A stretch of 64,000 nt of DNA, from IMG/VR virus record IMGVR_UViG_3300027804_000001, positions 269,613 through 333,612 of that record; one strand, 5' to 3'. The DNA is from a virus (Duplodnaviria > Caudoviricetes). Both the position numbers and the translations under genes were made by a program. Position 1 is the first letter of the stretch. Every line of letters starts with the position of its first letter. The notes under the pieces are model-generated. The model saw only the letters and a program-made list of their open reading frames with translations, was not told the DNA's origin and made no database searches. Shown here piece after piece: positions 10,001-48,633 of this stretch.

Positions 10001-11311
10001 TTCGTTTTCTGCGTCAACAACGTTTTTACCAATTGTTAGACCGATATATTGTGTGTCTTGTCTTGTGTATAATAAATCTTCTAATTTATTTTCATCAAAT
10101 AAATTTACAGTAGATAAACCTAAGGTGTTTGATAAATTTTTTAATAATATATCGGGTAAGTTATTAATACCATCATAACTTACATTTCTCATGTAAGCAA
10201 TGTTTTCAATATATTTTTTTACTTTATCGAAACTATGTCCATATAATTGGAAAATCGCTTCAGCCTTCTTGTCATCAGTATCAAACTCAAATAACTGTGG
10301 AGAAGACATAAATCTAACAAATAAATTAGATTTATAATCATCTATTTCGTCAGCCAAATTTGATAATTGTTCGATATATAAATCATAATCAATACCAACA
10401 ATTTTAACGTTCCAATTATCTTTTGAAAGTGGCCATGTTACTTCAACATCACTAAGTACTGTGTTTGAACTATCTATACTATCTTTTGGTACACTAAATG
10501 TTGCGGTGTATTTTGGATTTGTATCTCTATCAATTAAACATTGTTCTAATTCATCTAAATTAGAAAAGAAGTCTTCAACCAAACCATTATTTGGTCTTAT
10601 TAATATGTTCTCACTATAATTTGTGTTAGTTCCAAATGGTTTACCCTTAACCTTTAATACGATTTTATAATCGGTACTAGGTTCGGTATAATTTATAATG
10701 TCATAAGTGATACCACTTATTTCTATAACATACTTTGTATATGAAGAATAAAAATTTCTTAATGTGTTTGTGGTGTTTGGGTCGACTTGACTATTTGGTG
10801 TTACAAATATTACATCGAGTGGATTGTATAATCTACCAAAGTCAACCTCGAATTGTGTGGTGTTTAAATTAATGTCATAAACAACATTATCTACAGTATA
10901 ATCTGATGACCTTACTGAACTGTTTTTATCAATTAAAACACCAGCCGGAAACTTTTCAATTATATTTCCTAATGTTGCACCAATTCTACTTTTTAATGAA
11001 CCAAATAATGATTTACCCGCATCATTTTTTGATGACCTAAATTTTACCTCTTTATTTTCATTTGAAGTACCATTTGGGTTATTTTGGTCATTTGACTTAT
11101 ATTTTTCTTCTTTTAAATCGTCTAAGGTTAGAAAATCAGAAAATTGTCCAGAACGAAATGTTTTCACATCTCTTTCAGGGATAGATCTGTCAATAGCGAA
11201 GTTAGTATTAGTCAATTGACTAGTACCATCGGTAATTTGTCTACCGACTAAACTATCACTAAACGTTTCAGACCCATTCGCCGCCTGACTTGGAACTTTT
11301 CTTCTTGCCAT
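3326..11311 (-). CDS. Giant baseplate wedge-like protein (gp7/P2 gpI-like N-region) fused to Thr-Pro stalks and PA14-like domain, 2661 aa
   Basis: YKSKGTRSSIEFFLKFLG matches the KGT motif of baseplate wedge proteins; lies in baseplate cluster; C-terminal half is repeats plus globular inserts. Confidence 0.6.
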   Translation of the reverse strand: MARRKVPSQAANGSETFSDSLVGRQITDGTSQLTNTNFAIDRSIPERDVKTFRSGQFSDFLTLDDLKEEKYKSNDQNNPNGTSNENKEVKFRSSKNDAGKSLFGSLKSRIGATLGNIIEKFPAGVLIDKNSSVRSSDYTVDNVVYDINLNTTQFEVDFGRLYNPLDVIFVTPNSQVDPNTTNTLRNFYSSYTKYVIEISGITYDIINYTEPSTDYKIVLKVKGKPFGTNTNYSENILIRPNNGLVEDFFSNLDELEQCLIDRDTNPKYTATFSVPKDSIDSSNTVLSDVEVTWPLSKDNWNVKIVGIDYDLYIEQLSNLADEIDDYKSNLFVRFMSSPQLFEFDTDDKKAEAIFQLYGHSFDKVKKYIENIAYMRNVSYDGINNLPDILLKNLSNTLGLSTVNLFDENKLEDLLYTRQDTQYIGLTIGKNVVDAENEFYRRLLVNLSHIYKSKGTRSSIEFFLKFLGAPEPMIKINEFVYQITSLPKSFDLDSDIYDVIAGTKTYNVAEFIPSGYTYSISSTKASTTFTSETYPIVEGTKIPKTAFDESSNTFFQKGAGWYDITLDHRSIDIIDGDKSNLTGRTKTIKTKNKSFTYGEDYFDIYRSLPGLDTGYEIVSKLDNRQRQIADEYSSFIFNRKNIEVYLSSANAINYDIWRKSRELEISFGSATLEPQTGVTFAEYVDKMLSTQIKNSHIIKYKKNYIKLEDIYQDYVSSTDFVPYTIPDLNEFINKMSPYWTQVLDQVIPSTTLWTGGNLIENNIFGRPKYKYRYGCQPKTFTESLYPSFEEAIEEDFEKLLGSHHENYFRGLINATGVTYYPLIEIDGIQYGGPESGFEVIVSGNTSIPGVSAKLFNSFPIDNCTGTTSSSTHLPLICDYKDYLEPDVNAIKDLWVDALIGLIDSINSEDTMNTPGCIDTYAPYTAATSSSTCTQVPKPKISYSFFTDENGIEQVTFTSIKYGPNDCSVEEYLDYRFVASNGATTPADCTLELDFSFDCPDDDEDPNRLFAGDDINYPNGPECILNGDLKIKITGDTNNIIQKNRVKNWPLFVYRNCEYGVNETTGYTVHGSTMDIPGGYECVWVVSNVKETDEIDFLFTDAANCDTKVKFEGINIQWIGYSGLTPSPVDDEVLYKLVPKIQYRNSFNYGLGGNSYVLKYTGGSQTTLTSYTKTYVKDIVSGDTILSATFNDCSELSNQSLVDGLTNDDFTFVFDYTPKKVTAKDCLGTIKKYHITGTTKDGDVEVFEILQTTKVKVYTRKYVDESTDEVIDLKRFFFTERFPEHLQIKPIQEEPCCDYSNDYYEHGDYLITESGRLIEVISVNLEYCESDLYFNLNLSGTTPTNLIAFNGNSNHQILLQHVYDEFKTLDEYIIQYYDGGLCQDITQTSSERDTTGYVDCEITPYRDCNSAYPTPTPTPTITPTVTPTLTVTPTYTITPTTTITPTFTITPTFTLTQTITPTLTITPTITPTYTQTITPTYTITPTETVTPTLTITPTNTITPTAIPCVDCPSGYTWTPIDGGYCTAIDIVSATAPTTPYTASGRTYFEYSMSGTTVYQLGWNINGTGTEEIHLNTADLWKNTTGYNIFNPGNGPLNRTGLWANDGVNDNVDNPLQTWLGFNVCITGITGGDYYIGIGADNEFRLEIDGNVILDTFANSGLNELSKFRTWHVYPITLTAGDHIIGLYGYNLTGNQTNPASFGCEIYDNTLPQLTGATSINDLNVIFSSSDFIGQTIPVIKDINGNYLSSGYTCPSGYEYAPCDGNCWKLIYCPETPTPTPTPTFTITPTITPTFTVTPTITPTYTQTLTPTYTITPTLTPDCEFIVDTTYVAATPTPTVTPTFTITPTFTITPTYTITPTITQTLTPTYTITPTLTPACDFVVNATYVAPTPTPTVTPTHTITPTLTPTLTITPTQTVTPTFTITPTFTPTITPTYTITPTLTPDCQFIVSTTYVAPTPTPTQSITPTITPTLTITPTFTITPTETVTPTYTITPTYTITPTITPTYTITPTYTITPTFTITPTITPTFTPACDFNVDTTYVAPTPTPTVTPTYTITPTQTVTPTFTVTPTYTITPTQTCDPFVTQYLRVRLLGCSNFDIQLFNNPDLTDNANAICDYIVSGTAYGDLGTVFNGTETIAYNDHTHGFNIGAGLLPGECVSGFTVNSVTPQCDCVNVVILPITPTPTITPTYTITPTLTVTPTITPTFTVTPTLTPACEFTVTTTYVAPTPTPTVTPTYTITPTFTITPTITPTYTITPTYTITPTQTLSPTITPTLTITPTFTITPTQTITPTLTVTPTITPTYTITPTLTPACDFNVDTTYVAPTPTPTVTPTYTITPTYTITPTITPTYTITPTFTITPTQTVSQTITPTLTITPTLTITPTYTITPTVTVSPTITPTYTITPTLTPACDFTVSTTYVAPTPTPTITPTFTITPTFTITPTVTVSPTITPTLTITPTIDCSFAASFSEYVPSVTTTPTITPTMTITPTPLPVSGLTWTTYTNVTGFSQCLYVDPTVSAQNRINAGWAISNLNQTVRFNVSNSSNCPNGTCNQTQIGWAEATITVGPQNTNMSLDFSGLAELQDTNFENIKFKLNGTEIARATSQDLNQGCAMGPVIKTFTVPSPYLLAANSVHTLRIEFTTNDALYHVNSYYQVELGFNTV

Positions 11312-41986: not shown

Positions 41987-42031
41987 TATGTTCTTTTATC
42001 TATAAATAGATAATTTGTAAAAATATATCAA

Positions 42032-43912
42032 TTAAACAGTAGCGTAATCTCTTGGGTTTGTTGGGTCAATATTATTCTGAACAACAGTGGTACCTTGATT
42101 ACCATTTTTAATAATAACCGCAACATCTTTCATTATTCTTTCCATATCACTCGCTGAAACGGGGTTATTTTCTGTTGTTGATTTTTTTTCTTCCTCTTTT
42201 GGTTTATTATCAACATTTTTTGGTTTTTCAGGTGCTGCTTGAGCGGCACTTTTTACCTTTTCTTGTTCACTAAATTTGTTTCTTTCCGCATCCATTTGAC
42301 CCTTAATACTAAGGGTATCCGATTTACCTGAAATATAATCATCCAATGCTTTATTGGTTAATTTAATATACTCATCTGCCTTAGCACCAAAACCTCTATA
42401 TGTATTAGCAAATTCCACCTTTAACATGGCGGTAATTTCAGATAACAATAATGTTGATTTTTGAGTTTCTGTAAATTGATTTAATGCAATATCTTTCGTA
42501 TTTTGTTTTTCAAATAATGTCTGATTTTCTAATATTGCGTTTGCTGTTGCTTGGTCTAAATCTTCTAATGCTTGTGTTCTTTCTATACCAAGTTTTTCAG
42601 CAATAGATGGAGGTACTTCAATAACCATTTTACCACCCGCACCCATTCTCGCTAAGTTTGTAATAAATTCTTGTTGTTTTTCGTCTACAGTAATACCTGC
42701 GGTCATTAAATCTGCCGCTGCGGATGTTCTTTCGGCAGCAGCAATTGCACCTTTAGATAATTCTTGGTAACTTATACCTAATTCATTGGCCATTTGTTTT
42801 GCCCTTCTTAGGTTTACACCCGTAATTTCAAATCTTCCTTGTTCTGTATTATATGTTGCTAAAGATTTGGAGGCATCAATTAATGCATCTTGTAAACCTT
42901 CTACGTTATTTGTAGCCATATACATCATTTGGAATGGGTCACCCAATGCACCAACTGCACCACCTAAAACTTGTAAATTTGCAGCCAAATCAATTGCTTT
43001 TTCAGGGCTCATAACATCTTCCGCAATTTTAAATACGGAATCCATACTCATTCTAAATTCAGTTGCTTTACGAACCATTTCAGCTAAACCTTGAACACCA
43101 TTTTTAAAACCATATTCATTAATTTTTCCGAGATTCGCGGTCAACATTTCAGTTGTTTTTCTTGTATTAAGACCAAGTGTGAGTGCTGTTTTTCCTGCTT
43201 CATTAATATTCGTTAATGCCTTTTCCGCACCAACACCAATTAATTCAAAATTTCTAATAACTTCACCCATATTTTTTAAATCACCAACAAACGCTCTTGA
43301 CGTTTGGGACATGTCCTCTAGAAATTTTTCATTGTATGTAGTAAATCTTCCTGTTTGTTCTGTAAGTTCTATTGCCGTATCTGCCAGTTCATTGAATGAA
43401 TATCCCATTCCTTGAACTTTATCGTATGCATTAACGATGTTATCCCTATATCCTCTAGATAATTCACCCGCAATACCAATTTGACCATTTAATTTGTTTC
43501 TTAAGGATACCTCCTTCTCAACCATTTTAAAGGCTGCGTCCGCTAGTCCCGTTAATGAACTTGAAAAAATTTTACCGAATGCACCAGCAGCGTCTTTACT
43601 TTCATTAAAGGCTCTACCGACATTAGATAATGCATCTGTAATATCATTTGTACTAATTAGTTCTTGTGCAGCTTCACTACTGATTAAACCGGCTCCAGTT
43701 GTGTATCCTTGTACACTACCTATTTTACTTAATGTACCTTTAGAACCCGTTTCATTTGGTACAGTTTCCTTTATTGGCCATTTTTTATCAAGAAGTTTAT
43801 AAAACTTATCTGAATCAAGTTGATTACCACCTGTAACATTTGCATTAAAACTTGCAACAGCTGTTGATCTATTACTTGAACTGTTAATTATTGATTCTAT
43901 GGTATCTGCCAT
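42032..43912 (-). CDS. Tape measure protein
   Basis: Ala/Leu-rich helical 626 aa protein directly downstream of chaperone pair and upstream of baseplate hub genes. Confidence 0.7.
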   Translation of the reverse strand: MADTIESIINSSSNRSTAVASFNANVTGGNQLDSDKFYKLLDKKWPIKETVPNETGSKGTLSKIGSVQGYTTGAGLISSEAAQELISTNDITDALSNVGRAFNESKDAAGAFGKIFSSSLTGLADAAFKMVEKEVSLRNKLNGQIGIAGELSRGYRDNIVNAYDKVQGMGYSFNELADTAIELTEQTGRFTTYNEKFLEDMSQTSRAFVGDLKNMGEVIRNFELIGVGAEKALTNINEAGKTALTLGLNTRKTTEMLTANLGKINEYGFKNGVQGLAEMVRKATEFRMSMDSVFKIAEDVMSPEKAIDLAANLQVLGGAVGALGDPFQMMYMATNNVEGLQDALIDASKSLATYNTEQGRFEITGVNLRRAKQMANELGISYQELSKGAIAAAERTSAAADLMTAGITVDEKQQEFITNLARMGAGGKMVIEVPPSIAEKLGIERTQALEDLDQATANAILENQTLFEKQNTKDIALNQFTETQKSTLLLSEITAMLKVEFANTYRGFGAKADEYIKLTNKALDDYISGKSDTLSIKGQMDAERNKFSEQEKVKSAAQAAPEKPKNVDNKPKEEEKKSTTENNPVSASDMERIMKDVAVIIKNGNQGTTVVQNNIDPTNPRDYATV

Positions 43913-43923
43913 AACTATAAATA

Positions 43924-44076
43924 CTATTTAGAAGAGTTTTCCAACTCAACCATGTAATTGATGTAATATCTTCTTATATAGACAGGCATATTGAGAATAT
44001 CTCTATATGAGAATCCTCTTTTAACTAAGAATAAAATTTCGTCTAATTGACCTTTACTATAGTCCGTAGAAAGGGC
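43924..44076 (-). CDS. Tail/hub assembly chaperone C-terminal domain (gp51/GT-like), probably expressed by frameshift
   Basis: FSYRDILNMPVYIRRYYI resembles gp51/gpE'-type tails; no useful ATG start; overlaps end of upstream ORF in +1 frame. Confidence 0.65.
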   Translation of the reverse strand, partial: ALSTDYSKGQLDEILFLVKRGFSYRDILNMPVYIRRYYINYMVELENSSK

Positions 44077-44806
44077 GAAAAAACTCAACCCCGAATCCAA
44101 TTTCAACGTGGATTGTGTCTCCTGACGGGGTAGTTACTTTTTTCTTTAAATCTAATGAAGGTTTATTTTCTCTTACAAATTTTCTAAAATCTTGTGAATC
44201 TTTGATTGGTAAATTTTGTATAAAATTGTGAATGTTCATCATTTCTCTATTACCTGAAACCGATTTAATCATCATCTCAAGTTCTTTTGTTATAATTGGT
44301 GCTACACCATTCCCATTCCAACTTTTTTCTATTTCCTCTAATTCTTTTTGTTGTTTTCTTGTTAAGAATTTAAATGTAATATCTAATTTAGATTTTTCCA
44401 TAAAATATTTAAATTCACCATTTTCATTTGGAATTAGTTTAAATTCTTTAACACTAACTTCACTCAAATCTACTTTAGTACTAAAAGTTTGATTTGTTTT
44501 TGGGTCATTAACAAAAACATTAAATTCAGGACCAAACGCGGTATTTCTTAAAAATATTAATATTGCTTGTCTATCTTCTTCAATTAATTCGTCAATATTA
44601 ATGTCTTTATCTAAAACTTTTCTTTTTAACAATTCATCAACAACAGTATTTGATTGAATTAAGTTTTGTGCAGATAAAATATTTTCATCTGATGCAGTTA
44701 GGTATGCAACTCTAACTGATTTTTTTTGTGTTGTATAATAAATTCCTTTACTTGGTAATTCTACAACATCGTATGCAATTGTTGGGTCTATTGAAAATTG
44801 TTCCAT
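44057..44806 (-). CDS. Tail/baseplate hub assembly chaperone (T4 gp26-like)
   Basis: VELPSKG..Y, VAYLTASDENIL, IEEDRQAILIFLR, GFGVEFFRP; between tube and tape measure. Confidence 0.8.
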   Translation of the reverse strand: MEQFSIDPTIAYDVVELPSKGIYYTTQKKSVRVAYLTASDENILSAQNLIQSNTVVDELLKRKVLDKDINIDELIEEDRQAILIFLRNTAFGPEFNVFVNDPKTNQTFSTKVDLSEVSVKEFKLIPNENGEFKYFMEKSKLDITFKFLTRKQQKELEEIEKSWNGNGVAPIITKELEMMIKSVSGNREMMNIHNFIQNLPIKDSQDFRKFVRENKPSLDLKKKVTTPSGDTIHVEIGFGVEFFRPFYGL

Positions 44807-44852
44807 AATTAAAATATATTAAATAACTATATCAATGTAAAGTTTTTAAAAT

Positions 44853-44881
44853 AAAAAAAGGTATCCCTTTCGAGATACCTT
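44853..44881 (-). terminator. Rho-independent terminator after tail tube gene
   Basis: AAGGTATCTC-GAAA-GGGATACCTT plus T-tract. Confidence 0.88.
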
Positions 44882-44903
44882 CCTTGACAGATTTTTTATT
44901 ATG

Positions 44904-45392
44904 TTAATATACTTGAATACATCTATCCATTCTTAAAGAACAATCGATAGTTGCAATTGCATCGTTATTATAATCTAATTCATTGAAGTTCAAGTTTGTA
45001 ATAAAACAACCTTGTAATATCCATTTTTCAACCACAACTCCTGTTGGGTCTAACATTTCCAGTTCTACATCTTTCTTATAACCAGCAGCATATCCCATTC
45101 TACCTGTTACTGATTCGGCATGTAAACGGAACCACTCCATTAATGCTTGAGACGCTGAAGGTCCAATTGGGTCTTTAAATTTAACTCTCATCTCTTCCCA
45201 TGTAAATCTACCAGCTACATATGTTGATGTATTTAAAAACGGAATCTCAACTGAGTTAATTTTTGCACTAGGTCTCGCACCTGATGTTACATACCATTCA
45301 TTGATACCCAAAGATGATGGGAATCTAAAGATGAATCGGTTAACACGTTTCGGTTCATATGGAACCGGCATTTTCATTAATAAATCTGCCAT
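44904..45392 (-). CDS. Tail tube protein (T4 gp19-like)
   Basis: 162 aa; EPKRVNRF, YVAGRFTWEEM, YKKDVELEMLD...EKWILQGCF; downstream of sheath. Confidence 0.9.
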   Translation of the reverse strand: MADLLMKMPVPYEPKRVNRFIFRFPSSLGINEWYVTSGARPSAKINSVEIPFLNTSTYVAGRFTWEEMRVKFKDPIGPSASQALMEWFRLHAESVTGRMGYAAGYKKDVELEMLDPTGVVVEKWILQGCFITNLNFNELDYNNDAIATIDCSLRMDRCIQVY

Positions 45393-45610
45393 TTTGTATT
45401 TGTTAAGTTTTAGTTTATCTTTCTTATAAATATATTCAAATCGAGAAATATTTTATTTTACCAAATACTTGATTTTATCAAAAAAATATGTTAGTTTTTT
45501 ACTAGTCCCAGTATCCAGTTCTAGAATATTTCTTTATTATTTAATAAATACTAGCATATCTAGTTCCAGAATACTGGGTTGAGTATAAAAGTATAAAGAT
45601 TATAAAAAAT

Positions 45611-45685: not shown

Positions 45686-48538
45686 TTAAATGTTATCAAA
45701 AGATGCTCCTGTTGGAGTGATAATGAACTCAACATCAATAAATTCAAGAGAACGAGTAGGTTTAATATAGATTTTACCTCTAAGTGTATTTGCATCTATA
45801 TCCTCTGGATCATTTGATACTGTTACACGGAAATCATATAAACCTCTTTCTTTCTTAATTGACTCAAGAATTGGGTTTACCAATCTCAAGAACTCATTTC
45901 TTACTTGCTCGTCGTTTTGTTCAAATAACAATCTTACAGAAACCGCAGATATTAACTTTCTTGCTCTTAACAACAATCTTCTTACGTTAATTCTGTCAAG
46001 TGCTGACTCTCTAACCTGTAGGGTTTTATTACCCCATATAATCGTACCAGTGTCAGAGAACGTTGCAATAGGGTTAATTCTGTTCTTATATAGGTCATCT
46101 CTTTCGTCAAGGGTAAGTTTCTTAAACGCTTTAATTGCGTTTACTAGACCTCTTGAGTAACCCGCCACCGCGAACCATGGATATGATACGTTATCGGTTA
46201 AAGCGATGTTTTTAACCACTTCACCTGTTGGTGGGATGTATAATTGGGTTGCATTGTCTCCGTCTCTTACCTGAATCCAAGGCCAGTATGTTGCGGAATA
46301 GTTAGTATCTAAAGCTACCATATCTAAGTCATCAATCACCTCCTCTGCTGTTGACACGTTTGGAGAGTTAATAACATATAATGAATCCGCTCTATCATTC
46401 TCAACCATATCTATCGCTTGAGTTACAAGTGAACTGTGGTTATAGAAATCTATACCAGGTGTTGCGAATACGTTTATATCAATTGCTTCAGGGTTTGCAA
46501 ATGTTTGAATACCTTGTAGATATGAATAATAATCAGAATTACCTACTGTAGAACTGAATACACCACCGTTTGTTGTGTGACCACTAACATATGTTGTTTT
46601 TCCGAAAATGTAACCATCTCCGTTAGTTCTTACATTTCTATAGATATCCCAACCATCAAATCCACCGAATACTGCAAATGTAAATTTACGATTATTAATA
46701 CTACTTAAACTACCCTTTTCTGTACCTTCTAAATCATATGGTGTCGTTTGATATGTAACACCTGTGATAGAAGATGCGTTTGTTGATAAGTGGAAACCAA
46801 AAGTTTCTGAAGTTGCACCAATACCTTTATACTTAAACAAATCTCTATCATAACCAACTTGAGATGATAAACCTAAAGAAACTTTTCTAACTTTATCACC
46901 GTTTGACAAAATAGGTGTACCGTTTGATTCATAAGAAACTACGTCACCGGCGGTATAATATTTTGTTTTGTAAAGGATACTACCTAAATCACTTGATCCT
47001 GAACCAAATGCCCCATTACTCTTGAATCCTTTGAAACCAGATGGGAAAGCGTCTGTTGGGTGATTGTCAGCCATAGATAACATAATGAACTTAGAACGTA
47101 ATTCGTATTCACCATCAGATGTACCCACTTTCTTTGCAACATAACCTGGTAAATCAGGATTCATGTTACATCTTGAAAACTTCTCAAGTACAACTATATT
47201 GTCATCAGTATCGTTGAAATCTCTCACGATTAAATCGAAATCACCACTATCTAAGTCGATGTTTTGAATTGTAATTTTAACTTGGAAGTTAGCAGCCTCA
47301 CCATCTGAAATTGTAATTACTTCAAATAAATCTGCAACTTCACCACCACGAACTTCAGATACAACCATTGGTGAAATTGTTGTATCCCATTGACCTACGA
47401 AATTATTACCGTCTGTCTCAACAACAACTGAAGTACTTAAACCTCTTATTAATCCATTATCATATGCTGCCTTTAAAAGGTTAGGATATGATTCATGAAC
47501 ATAAACAGGAAAATCTGACTTATCTTTATCAAATACGTCAGTACCCAAAACTTTAGTTATAAATTTAGTTGATCTTGAATCTAATGAACAAGTAAATGAT
47601 TTAGCACCACCTGTTTCACCTGTTACATTAAGAGTAAACTCATTTAATGGATTTAATTCAATATCTACACCAACAATCTCATCAATATCTACAGATGTAC
47701 TACCACTAACTTCTAATTGTAATGTCTGACCACTATATGAACCTCTTGATCTTAACGCTGCCACAACTATGTTGTCATAATCAGTGTTTAAAGATGCATC
47801 ATATGAATATCTTGTCACATCGAATACACTTGTACCACTATTCCACACAAACAGATATGAATAAACATCTGTTATTGAAAGTCCACTATTAAAGAACACG
47901 TTGTACCATTCTTTTTGGTGATTAGAAGTTTCATTATCAACACCTGTTAAAGGTGAAATAACCTCATCTGATGCGGTTAATGCTGAGATATCATCTGAAT
48001 CACACTTACCGATAACAAACCATTTTCCATCGTCTGAATTAGTAAAACCACTAAAATTTTCATTAATGTAATCTGTTATTGATGAACCGTCATGTGCTGT
48101 TTTACCTGAAAGTTCACCAAATATAGGGGAACCACTTGGGGTATCAGGATTCATTGTTACACCGCTTGTTGTAACTGATGTTAAATCTACAGTCACACCA
48201 CCTATTGTTTTTATACCATAAGTTTTTCCTGGTTTGTATCCAGTTAAACCCAATACTCTTGTTACGAATAATTGATTTGATTCTTCTAAATATGATTTAG
48301 CTACGTATGGTAATTCATACTTTGGATTACCGTTACCATCTTTCACTGGAGACGTTGGGCCAAAATATGTTCTAAACTCATCGAAGTTGCTAATTAAAAT
48401 TGGTTCAAATGCGGGTCCTTTTAGTGTTTCACCAACGAGACCTAATGTTGTTACACCTACACTTTGAGCCACAAATGTTAAATCTTTCTCTGATGTATAC
48501 ACACCCGGAGAAACGAAAACTCTGTTTGAACTTGCCAT
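45686..48538 (-). CDS. Tail sheath protein (T4 gp18-like)
   Basis: VSPGVYTSEKD N-terminus; YWPW, PWFAVAGYSRG, INPI, WGNKTLQ, DRINVRRLL, LFEQND C-terminal motifs. Confidence 0.97.
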   Translation of the reverse strand: MASSNRVFVSPGVYTSEKDLTFVAQSVGVTTLGLVGETLKGPAFEPILISNFDEFRTYFGPTSPVKDGNGNPKYELPYVAKSYLEESNQLFVTRVLGLTGYKPGKTYGIKTIGGVTVDLTSVTTSGVTMNPDTPSGSPIFGELSGKTAHDGSSITDYINENFSGFTNSDDGKWFVIGKCDSDDISALTASDEVISPLTGVDNETSNHQKEWYNVFFNSGLSITDVYSYLFVWNSGTSVFDVTRYSYDASLNTDYDNIVVAALRSRGSYSGQTLQLEVSGSTSVDIDEIVGVDIELNPLNEFTLNVTGETGGAKSFTCSLDSRSTKFITKVLGTDVFDKDKSDFPVYVHESYPNLLKAAYDNGLIRGLSTSVVVETDGNNFVGQWDTTISPMVVSEVRGGEVADLFEVITISDGEAANFQVKITIQNIDLDSGDFDLIVRDFNDTDDNIVVLEKFSRCNMNPDLPGYVAKKVGTSDGEYELRSKFIMLSMADNHPTDAFPSGFKGFKSNGAFGSGSSDLGSILYKTKYYTAGDVVSYESNGTPILSNGDKVRKVSLGLSSQVGYDRDLFKYKGIGATSETFGFHLSTNASSITGVTYQTTPYDLEGTEKGSLSSINNRKFTFAVFGGFDGWDIYRNVRTNGDGYIFGKTTYVSGHTTNGGVFSSTVGNSDYYSYLQGIQTFANPEAIDINVFATPGIDFYNHSSLVTQAIDMVENDRADSLYVINSPNVSTAEEVIDDLDMVALDTNYSATYWPWIQVRDGDNATQLYIPPTGEVVKNIALTDNVSYPWFAVAGYSRGLVNAIKAFKKLTLDERDDLYKNRINPIATFSDTGTIIWGNKTLQVRESALDRINVRRLLLRARKLISAVSVRLLFEQNDEQVRNEFLRLVNPILESIKKERGLYDFRVTVSNDPEDIDANTLRGKIYIKPTRSLEFIDVEFIITPTGASFDNI

Positions 48539-48633
48539 TGATTAATGTTTGGTTAAATAATTTATTACTTTACATTATAAATATCTTTGTTTTTATGAAA
48601 GATTTCCCTAATTTTTTTAAAATAGATATTTAT

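Follow-up and report, generated by a model that had tools for sequence, protein, structure and literature searches.

The stretch of DNA analysed here (the window) comprises 64,000 nucleotides (nt) of the Caudoviricetes record IMGVR_UViG_3300027804_000001 (positions 269,613-333,612), and gene content was judged within it. All genes discussed lie on the minus strand, in the order tail sheath, tail tube, an open reading frame (ORF) of 249 amino acids (aa), an overlapping short ORF, a 626-aa ORF and a 1573-aa ORF. The subject is the junction between the 249-aa ORF, a putative tail assembly chaperone gene of the T4 gp26/gp51 family, and the short ORF that overlaps its end, where a programmed +1 ribosomal frameshift would join the two. 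The elements at the junction are the following.

44057..44806, minus strand: short-form chaperone (P0001), 249 aa, 0 frame; stop codon TAG at 44059-44057, C-terminus ...GVEFFRPFYGL.

43924..44082, minus strand: +1-frame C-terminal domain, about 50 aa after the shift (FFALSTDY...ELENSSK); stop codon TAG at 43926-43924.

44075..44083, minus strand: shift site UUU UUU CGC; proposed P-site UUU at 44080-44078, which would re-pair on UUC at 44079-44077; A-site CGC (0 frame) at 44077-44075.

The 249-aa ORF ends GTT GAG TTT TTT CGC CCT TTC TAC GGA CTA TAG, with a run of six T (T6) at 44083-44078 and the 0-frame stop seven codons past GAG UUU UUU CGC. A second ORF with a TTG start (43924..44106, 60 aa) lies in the +1 frame relative to it; this frame is open from before the T6 run to 43924, and its sole ATG stands 21 codons from its end. 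The -1 frame is closed within 14 nt past the 0-frame stop. Reading TTTC as one step yields a product of 293 aa (243+50) with the junction ...GVEFF/ALSTDYSK...; the predicted +1 junction peptide is GVEFFALSTDYSK, and a -2 product would carry one extra F. An earlier reading made from the sequence alone (the sequence-only reading) had reported the T6 coordinates, the sequence at the ORF end, the +1 offset, the late ATG and the lack of a TATTTAT box, and all of these were found as it described them; TATTTAT is absent from 43924-44900, which is the region around the chaperone gene and the +1 ORF.

The genes on either side are as follows.

44904..45392, minus strand: tail tube (P0003), 162 aa, directly upstream of the chaperone gene; phrog_4542 'tail tube protein', E-value (E) 2e-24; PF06841 Phage_T4_gp19.

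42032..43912, minus strand: presumed tape measure (P0002), 626 aa, named from its position only; it starts 12 nt past the stop of the +1 ORF.

45686..48538, minus strand: tail sheath, 950 aa; phrog_23 'tail sheath', E 2e-62; PF04984 and PF17482.

The chaperone gene is therefore found where frameshift-linked pairs are placed, between the tube gene and the presumed tape measure gene. The 626-aa protein has no Pfam or PHROG match, and BLASTP similarity to the tape measure protein of Flavobacterium phage immuto is absent; in immuto, the gene occupying this position carries the annotation tail tape measure protein.

A protein search returned 2091 relatives of the 249-aa protein, the ends of which were examined in detail in the best 120 (69-100% identity). 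These 120 of the 2091 measure 249-251 aa (117 have exactly 249), and every one of them stops where the short form does. Compared by megablast with GenBank phages, the region has no match. The +1 ORF is present in 28 of 28 close viral contigs; in 15 of these 28 loci the site is immediately preceded by a stop in the +1 frame (gTA Gaa), and the open frame starts N-F-F-A-L. A wider scan covered 80 loci at 30-72% identity, of which three end before the short-form stop and 77 are usable, and in these 77 the C-terminal domain profile was searched in all three frames. Of these loci, 76 carry the domain in the +1 frame and one (L101) carries it in the -1 frame; none has it in frame with the chaperone. 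In the exceptional locus (L101:1890-2090) the domain in the -1 frame accompanies a T9 run (GAT TTT TTT TTC CCA), an offset which could reflect a switch to -1 shifting, polymerase slippage or a homopolymer assembly error. The two-piece +1 arrangement is also seen in three of three GenBank phages, Flavobacterium phage immuto, Microcystis phage Mel-JY01 and the uncultured LR756508 (~30% identity), in whose records the pieces are annotated as separate genes or not at all.

The overlapping ORF is startless in a considerable part of this set: in at least 35 loci ATG, GTG and TTG are all absent between the preceding +1 stop and the site, so that no start is possible there, and independent initiation is excluded as a general mechanism because of these loci. 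Variability by codon position past the 0-frame stop, taken in the +1 phase, is 0.27/0.18/0.39, which is a coding pattern, and these comparisons show the +1 ORF to be coding and under purifying selection. Among 1.84 billion representatives, the C-terminal domain profile recovered 890 clusters (at 50% identity) at E<=1e-3; about 145 of the top 150 are small, separately called ORFs. Judged from the sequences compared, a startless overlapping ORF with an offset conserved in 28/28, 76/77 and 3/3 loci is far beyond chance. One 158-aa cluster (P0129) carries the chaperone end and the C-terminal domain in a single frame, with the frame change about 10 codons upstream of the usual site, and is probably an indel or assembly error.

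Across these relatives, the shift windows of all +1 loci have one constant only: a TTT codon in frame, with C or T as the next base. The same tRNA-Phe would therefore be able to pair one base forward in each. The close relatives read NNN TTT TTT CGN CCT, the third codon being CGC, CGT, CGA, CGG or, once, CTC, and two of them (L030 and L038) have TTC TTT CGC. More distant relatives have TTT TTT TGG, TTT TTT TAC, TTT CTT (immuto, L078 and L079-L084) or TTT CTA (LR756508). The P-site TTT is invariant in 62 unique close (class A) sequences, and a Phe codon five codons upstream of the site alternates between TTT and TTC in 47% of the same 62. The sequence-only reading had suggested checking TTTTTTC and the frame offset for conservation; the offset is kept, whereas the T6 run is not required, the conserved core being UUU and then a pyrimidine.

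In the close clade the A-site codon is CGN; elsewhere it is UGG, UAC or CUU. CGC is among the rarest codons of the window, with 2 of 20,137 codons in its long ORFs as against 507 for AGA; no tRNA genes were found within the window. The window site thus carries the pyrimidine after an in-frame UUU that marks UUU_Y-type sites and the rare CGC in the 0-frame A site. The long ORFs of the window contain in-frame TTT_CGN at only two places, the other being at 11150-11160 (minus strand), ACA TTT CGT TCT, with the TTT starting at 11158.

Taken as a whole, the locus very probably carries a programmed ribosomal +1 frameshift in a tail assembly chaperone gene, and short and long chaperone forms are most likely made by this same phage gene. 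The sequence-only reading had proposed the direction of the shift, a movement of tRNA-Phe from UUU to UUC ahead of CGC, a fusion of 293 aa and a place before the tape measure gene, and all of these stand when compared with about 105 related loci. The signal, the offset and the homology can be read directly from the sequences, and we infer that the long form is itself synthesised. In the proposed mechanism, most ribosomes would read GAG UUU UUU CGC in frame and reach the stop seven codons on, giving the 249-aa short form. A minority would pause with peptidyl-tRNA-Phe on the second UUU and the very rare CGC waiting in the A site; the tRNA-Phe would then re-pair one base forward on UUC, GCC would be read next, and 50 further codons would give the 293-aa long form, which would gain a three-helix C-terminal domain. 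A hairpin 5' of the site may help to push the ribosome forward.

The chaperone belongs to a family that has been annotated under another name. P0001 scores 40.1 bits with the Pfam family PF12322 'T4_baseplate' (T4 gp26/gp51), for which the cut-off is 24.5, and it matches phrog_150 'baseplate hub' with E 3e-12 over positions 16-233 of 282; the match of the fusion to phrog_150 improves to E 1e-13 and extends over positions 16-266. Both T4 proteins match PF12322, and on phrog_150 gp26 (208 aa) spans 14-235 and gp51 (249 aa) 13-280. T4 gp26 ends ..KEFFELL and a stop at the homologous FF, which is the position of the shift site, and no +1 extension follows gene 26. An alignment of the window family (A4) with the gp51 family (34 homologues) by hhalign has a probability of 95.6% and E 1e-8, pairing columns 29-298 with 10-249, and it runs across the junction and the C-terminal domain. 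Identity of the T4 proteins to the window protein is below BLAST detection: BLASTP of the fusion against T4 gp51 gave nothing significant, a single-domain hidden Markov model was not significant, and hhalign with gp51 as a lone sequence gave a weak match (E 0.013). From these sequence matches, T4 gp26 and gp51 correspond to the short and long forms, with gp51 colinear including its C-terminal extension.

The sequence-only reading had described the two ORFs as a gp26-like chaperone joined to a gp51-like one. The family assignment is borne out, whereas the downstream ORF is only a C-terminal domain of about 50 aa and not a separate chaperone. Genes 26 and 51 of T4 do not form a tandem pair: each is a gene of its own, and the two are transcribed divergently, unlike the arrangement in the window phage. 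In the literature, T4 gp26 and gp51 are listed as hub assembly chaperones; gp51 is described there as essential, its function is given as unknown, and the particle does not contain it (Leiman 2010, PMC3004832). A literature search that included the PRFect paper, and in which most subscription journals were outside coverage, found no report of a frameshift in gp26-like genes. For the gp51 homologues P0276-P0367, precomputed domain lists give PF28602 beside PF12322; PF28602 is absent from the local Pfam scan of T4 gp51 (listing to E = 1) and from the long-form listings of this group.

Natural long forms encoded in a single ORF are also known from this family. Among the top 150 C-terminal domain clusters, four single ORFs of 296-308 aa carry the domain at their C-terminus and are colinear with the predicted +1 product across the junction, with no extra residue. 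In all four, the immediately upstream gene is a PF12322 paralogue of 272-293 aa; in the two examined (L113 and L114) this paralogue is without the C-terminal domain and ends FFWP..stop, like the short form. In three of the four, the contig stops within the gene past the pair; in L115 this gene is whole and encodes 1009 aa, a tape-measure-like size. These uncultured phages have the short and long genes in tandem, unlike the divergent pair of T4. On the sequence evidence, there are two genetic solutions for obtaining short and long forms, either one +1-shifted gene or two paralogous genes.

The predicted structures were consistent with a chaperone role. A model of a natural long form (predicted local distance difference test, pLDDT, 90.7; predicted template modelling score, pTM, 0.86) displays the extension as three helices. 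Foldseek, with this model as the query, retrieved nothing from the PDB at E<=0.001, and a sequence profile search against the PDB gave chance-level matches only. From BFVD, the fold search recovered 70 viral models that carry baseplate hub or hub assembly annotations, among them models from many jumbo phages, with E down to 3e-14. Exhaustive structural alignment of the long-form model with 48,161 PDB representatives placed 3fgx, 3klu and 2ob9 as the top three, all on residues 1-96. A model of window residues 1-102 (pLDDT 86) gave the same top three, the next match having Z 3.3. The values for this N-terminal domain model are as follows.

3fgx: Z 6.9, root-mean-square deviation 5.0, 88 aligned.

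2ob9, HK97 tail assembly chaperone: Z 4.9, root-mean-square deviation 3.8, 76 aligned.

3klu, YqbN: Z 4.7, root-mean-square deviation 3.8, 80 aligned.

These three entries are the solved tail assembly chaperones (PMC9603447), and it is striking that both structural searches arrive at them. On the models, the N-terminal domain is predicted to have the tail assembly chaperone fold, the same as that of the HK97 chaperone.

Other routes to the same products have to be weighed against a programmed +1 shift. The first is that RNA polymerase slips on the T run, such that mRNAs with one U fewer (or two more) put the C-terminal domain in frame. The T6 run of the window and the T7 runs of many distant relatives would lend themselves to this, as would the T9 relative with a different frame offset (L101), a type of run on which polymerases slip. 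Runs of 6-7, however, are short for efficient polymerase slippage, and sites with only three T (L030, L038, immuto, L078, L079-L084 and LR756508) are nonetheless arranged in the same +1 fashion; what is conserved is UUU and a pyrimidine in a fixed frame, not run length. Polymerase slippage is a very unlikely explanation.

A -2 ribosomal shift on U6, which the sequence-only reading had offered as an alternative, is slightly less likely still. The tRNA-Phe would move from UUU back two bases to UUU, reaching the same frame as +1 and giving a long form ..EFFFALS.. with an extra Phe, and both U6 and U7 permit perfect re-pairing two bases back. At the three-T sites, however, the picture is different: at TTC TTT CGC, TTT CTT and TTT CTA the tRNA-Phe would land on CUU, GCU or ACU, which argues against -2 as a general mechanism. 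The natural single-ORF long forms also align to the +1 product without an extra residue.

It is even more improbable that the short ORF is a small gene in its own right, with translation beginning at the TTG at 44106 or at another internal start, or by re-initiation past the 0-frame stop. The TTG does have AGGAG 12 nt upstream, hundreds of such small ORFs have been called as separate proteins, and GenBank annotates them separately. This TTG is not conserved, however, and at least 35 relatives have an intervening stop or no start codon; the only conserved Met lies 32 residues into the 52-residue domain, while the first conserved residues (FF-x-L) coincide exactly with the short-form end. The existence of natural fused long forms also stands against separate translation. 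That a single 293-aa gene was split by a homopolymer error in sequencing or assembly, or has recently become a pseudogene, would fit a break in a T6 run, a typical place for indels, but is effectively refuted by an offset kept in all close and in 76 of 77 wider loci, from more than 100 independent assemblies of different samples with 30-100% identity and varied site sequences, and by a 0-frame tail FF[R/W]P..stop that is itself conserved, also in phages without an overlap there.

Several observations weigh against a programmed +1 shift in a chaperone gene, or against parts of that interpretation. At individual T6 or T7 sites, a -2 shift or polymerase slippage is possible. The rare A-site codon is not universal, and the 'hungry codon' part of the mechanism may be limited to the clade of the window phage. 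The 626-aa gene is presumed to encode the tape measure protein from its position. The C-terminal domain alone compares modestly with gp51 (hhalign E 4e-4, probability 35%), and the Z scores of 4.7-6.9 for the N-terminal domain model are modest and below the level of a certain shared fold.

In further comparing the gene with known systems, the closest counterparts are lambda gpG/gpGT and P2 gpE/E+E', which PMC5009743 presents as tail assembly chaperones made via programmed frameshift (Levin 1993; Xu 2004, 2013, 2014). As in lambda G/GT, the gene stands between the tube and tape measure genes, the two forms would share their N-terminus, the shift lies a few codons before the short stop, the extension is startless, and the arrangement is conserved despite sequence divergence. 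The two differ in that the shift here would be +1 at UUU_Y as opposed to -1 at the X_XXY_YYZ heptamer in lambda, and in that the protein here, of about 250 aa, has a zinc-ribbon-like middle part in addition and belongs to PF12322, annotated 'baseplate hub'. By analogy with lambda gpG/gpGT, the shared N-terminal part would be expected to coat the tape measure protein, the extra domain may recruit another tail or hub component, and the shift would set the ratio of short to long form.

Recoding in a non-canonical direction has been seen in other tail or structural genes, and phage Mu makes a -2 tail frameshift. The haloarchaeal myovirus HSTV-2, cited in PMC5009743, probably has a +1 shift, and Listeria phage PSA, with a +1 shift, is cited in PMC9024508. 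The protein families and shift sites of PSA, HSTV-2 and Mu are different from those of the window gene.

The site itself is of a known type: UUU_Ynn is a +1-prone bacterial site, +1 shifting at UUU_Y is also known from Yersinia YopN-TyeA, and the influenza A PA-X site is UCC_UUU_CGU (PMC5009743). The window site resembles that of PA-X in the re-pairing of P-site tRNA-Phe from UUU to UUC, which would occur here as well, in the rare A-site CGN and in that no 3' structure is evident. It differs in its E-site codon, which is UUU or UUC as opposed to UCC, in its bacterial host and in its candidate 5' hairpin; distant relatives of the window gene differ further in having UGG or UAC in the A site. 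In prfB (RF2), with CUU UGA C and a Shine-Dalgarno-like sequence 3 nt upstream, a similar +1 re-pairing in the P site takes place at a slow A site. A stimulator of the RF2 type was considered for the window gene and rejected, as the A-site codon is a sense codon, not a stop, and the conserved GGGG ends 7 nt, not 3 nt, before the P-site codon.

A broader proposal, which is tentative and somewhat less likely to be right than wrong, is that the gp26/gp51 family supplies large contractile-tailed phages with their tail assembly chaperone, with an ancestral +1 shift at UUU_Y and a hairpin refolding behind the ribosome, and that T4 and some others later swapped this for a duplicated pair of short and long genes. 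Few features of long-tailed phages are as well conserved as the chaperone pairs linked by a frameshift, but T4-like phages and many jumbo myoviruses seemed to be without them. If true, the proposal would explain the seeming lack in T4 of the near-universal G/GT frameshift, and the hairpin would act in bacteria as a naturally occurring 5' stimulator of +1 shifts. For gp26 and gp51, the 'baseplate hub' proteins with roles unclear since the 1970s, the fold, the gene position and the occurrence of short and long forms would all fit the chaperone scheme. The 890 clusters would also provide a very large natural set of bacterial UUU_Y +1 sites, useful for the study of +1 efficiency. Annotation is corrected as well, as public records list a 'baseplate hub subunit' and a 'hypothetical protein' for the two pieces.

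Conserved RNA structure was sought on both sides of the site. None was found 3' of it: alifold gave an empty structure, and the z-scores of the scanned segments were -1.6 to +0.2. On the 5' side, a candidate was derived from the window sequence.

44088..44131, minus strand: candidate two-part 5' hairpin; outer part 44131-44126 with 44093-44088, inner part 44114-44109 with 44099-44094.

The 3' end of this hairpin lies 7 nt before the P-site codon. In an alignment of 54 sequences (A3), the rows of which are related to each other, its pairing holds in 86% of cells compared to 20-65% with the partners slid. Seven pairs change on both sides, none of 500 shuffles matches the observed covariation score, and one covarying pair consists of two synonymous third positions (CCR Pro with TTY Phe). 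These sequence data are suggestive of a conserved 5' hairpin, which is put forward as a hypothesis.

Other sequence elements are seen in the same region. An AGGAG at 44119-44123 (minus strand) lies inside the near-invariant TCAGGAGA, in the internal loop of the hairpin and 38 nt before the P-site codon, and the third positions of the Ser and Gly codons around it hardly vary. In immuto, Mel-JY01 and LR756508, GGAGG-like runs occur 25-35 nt upstream of the site despite differing amino acids. Many of the loci L083-L111 have another local CCC/GGG hairpin, for example GATATCCC-GTTT-GGGGTATC, which lies within the 25 nt before the T7 run, ends 1-2 nt before TTTTTTT and is formed by the Pro and Gly codons of an I-P-x-G-V motif.

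Elsewhere among the tail genes, TATTTAT is found on the minus strand at 42002-42008, 43917-43923, 45426-45432 and 48577-48583. In this order, the copies precede the starts of the 1573-aa gene, the tape-measure-like gene, the tube gene and the sheath gene by 5-45 nt. Across the window the motif is rarer than expected, with 31 sites as against 52, and it is probably a promoter or translation-start motif of the phage.

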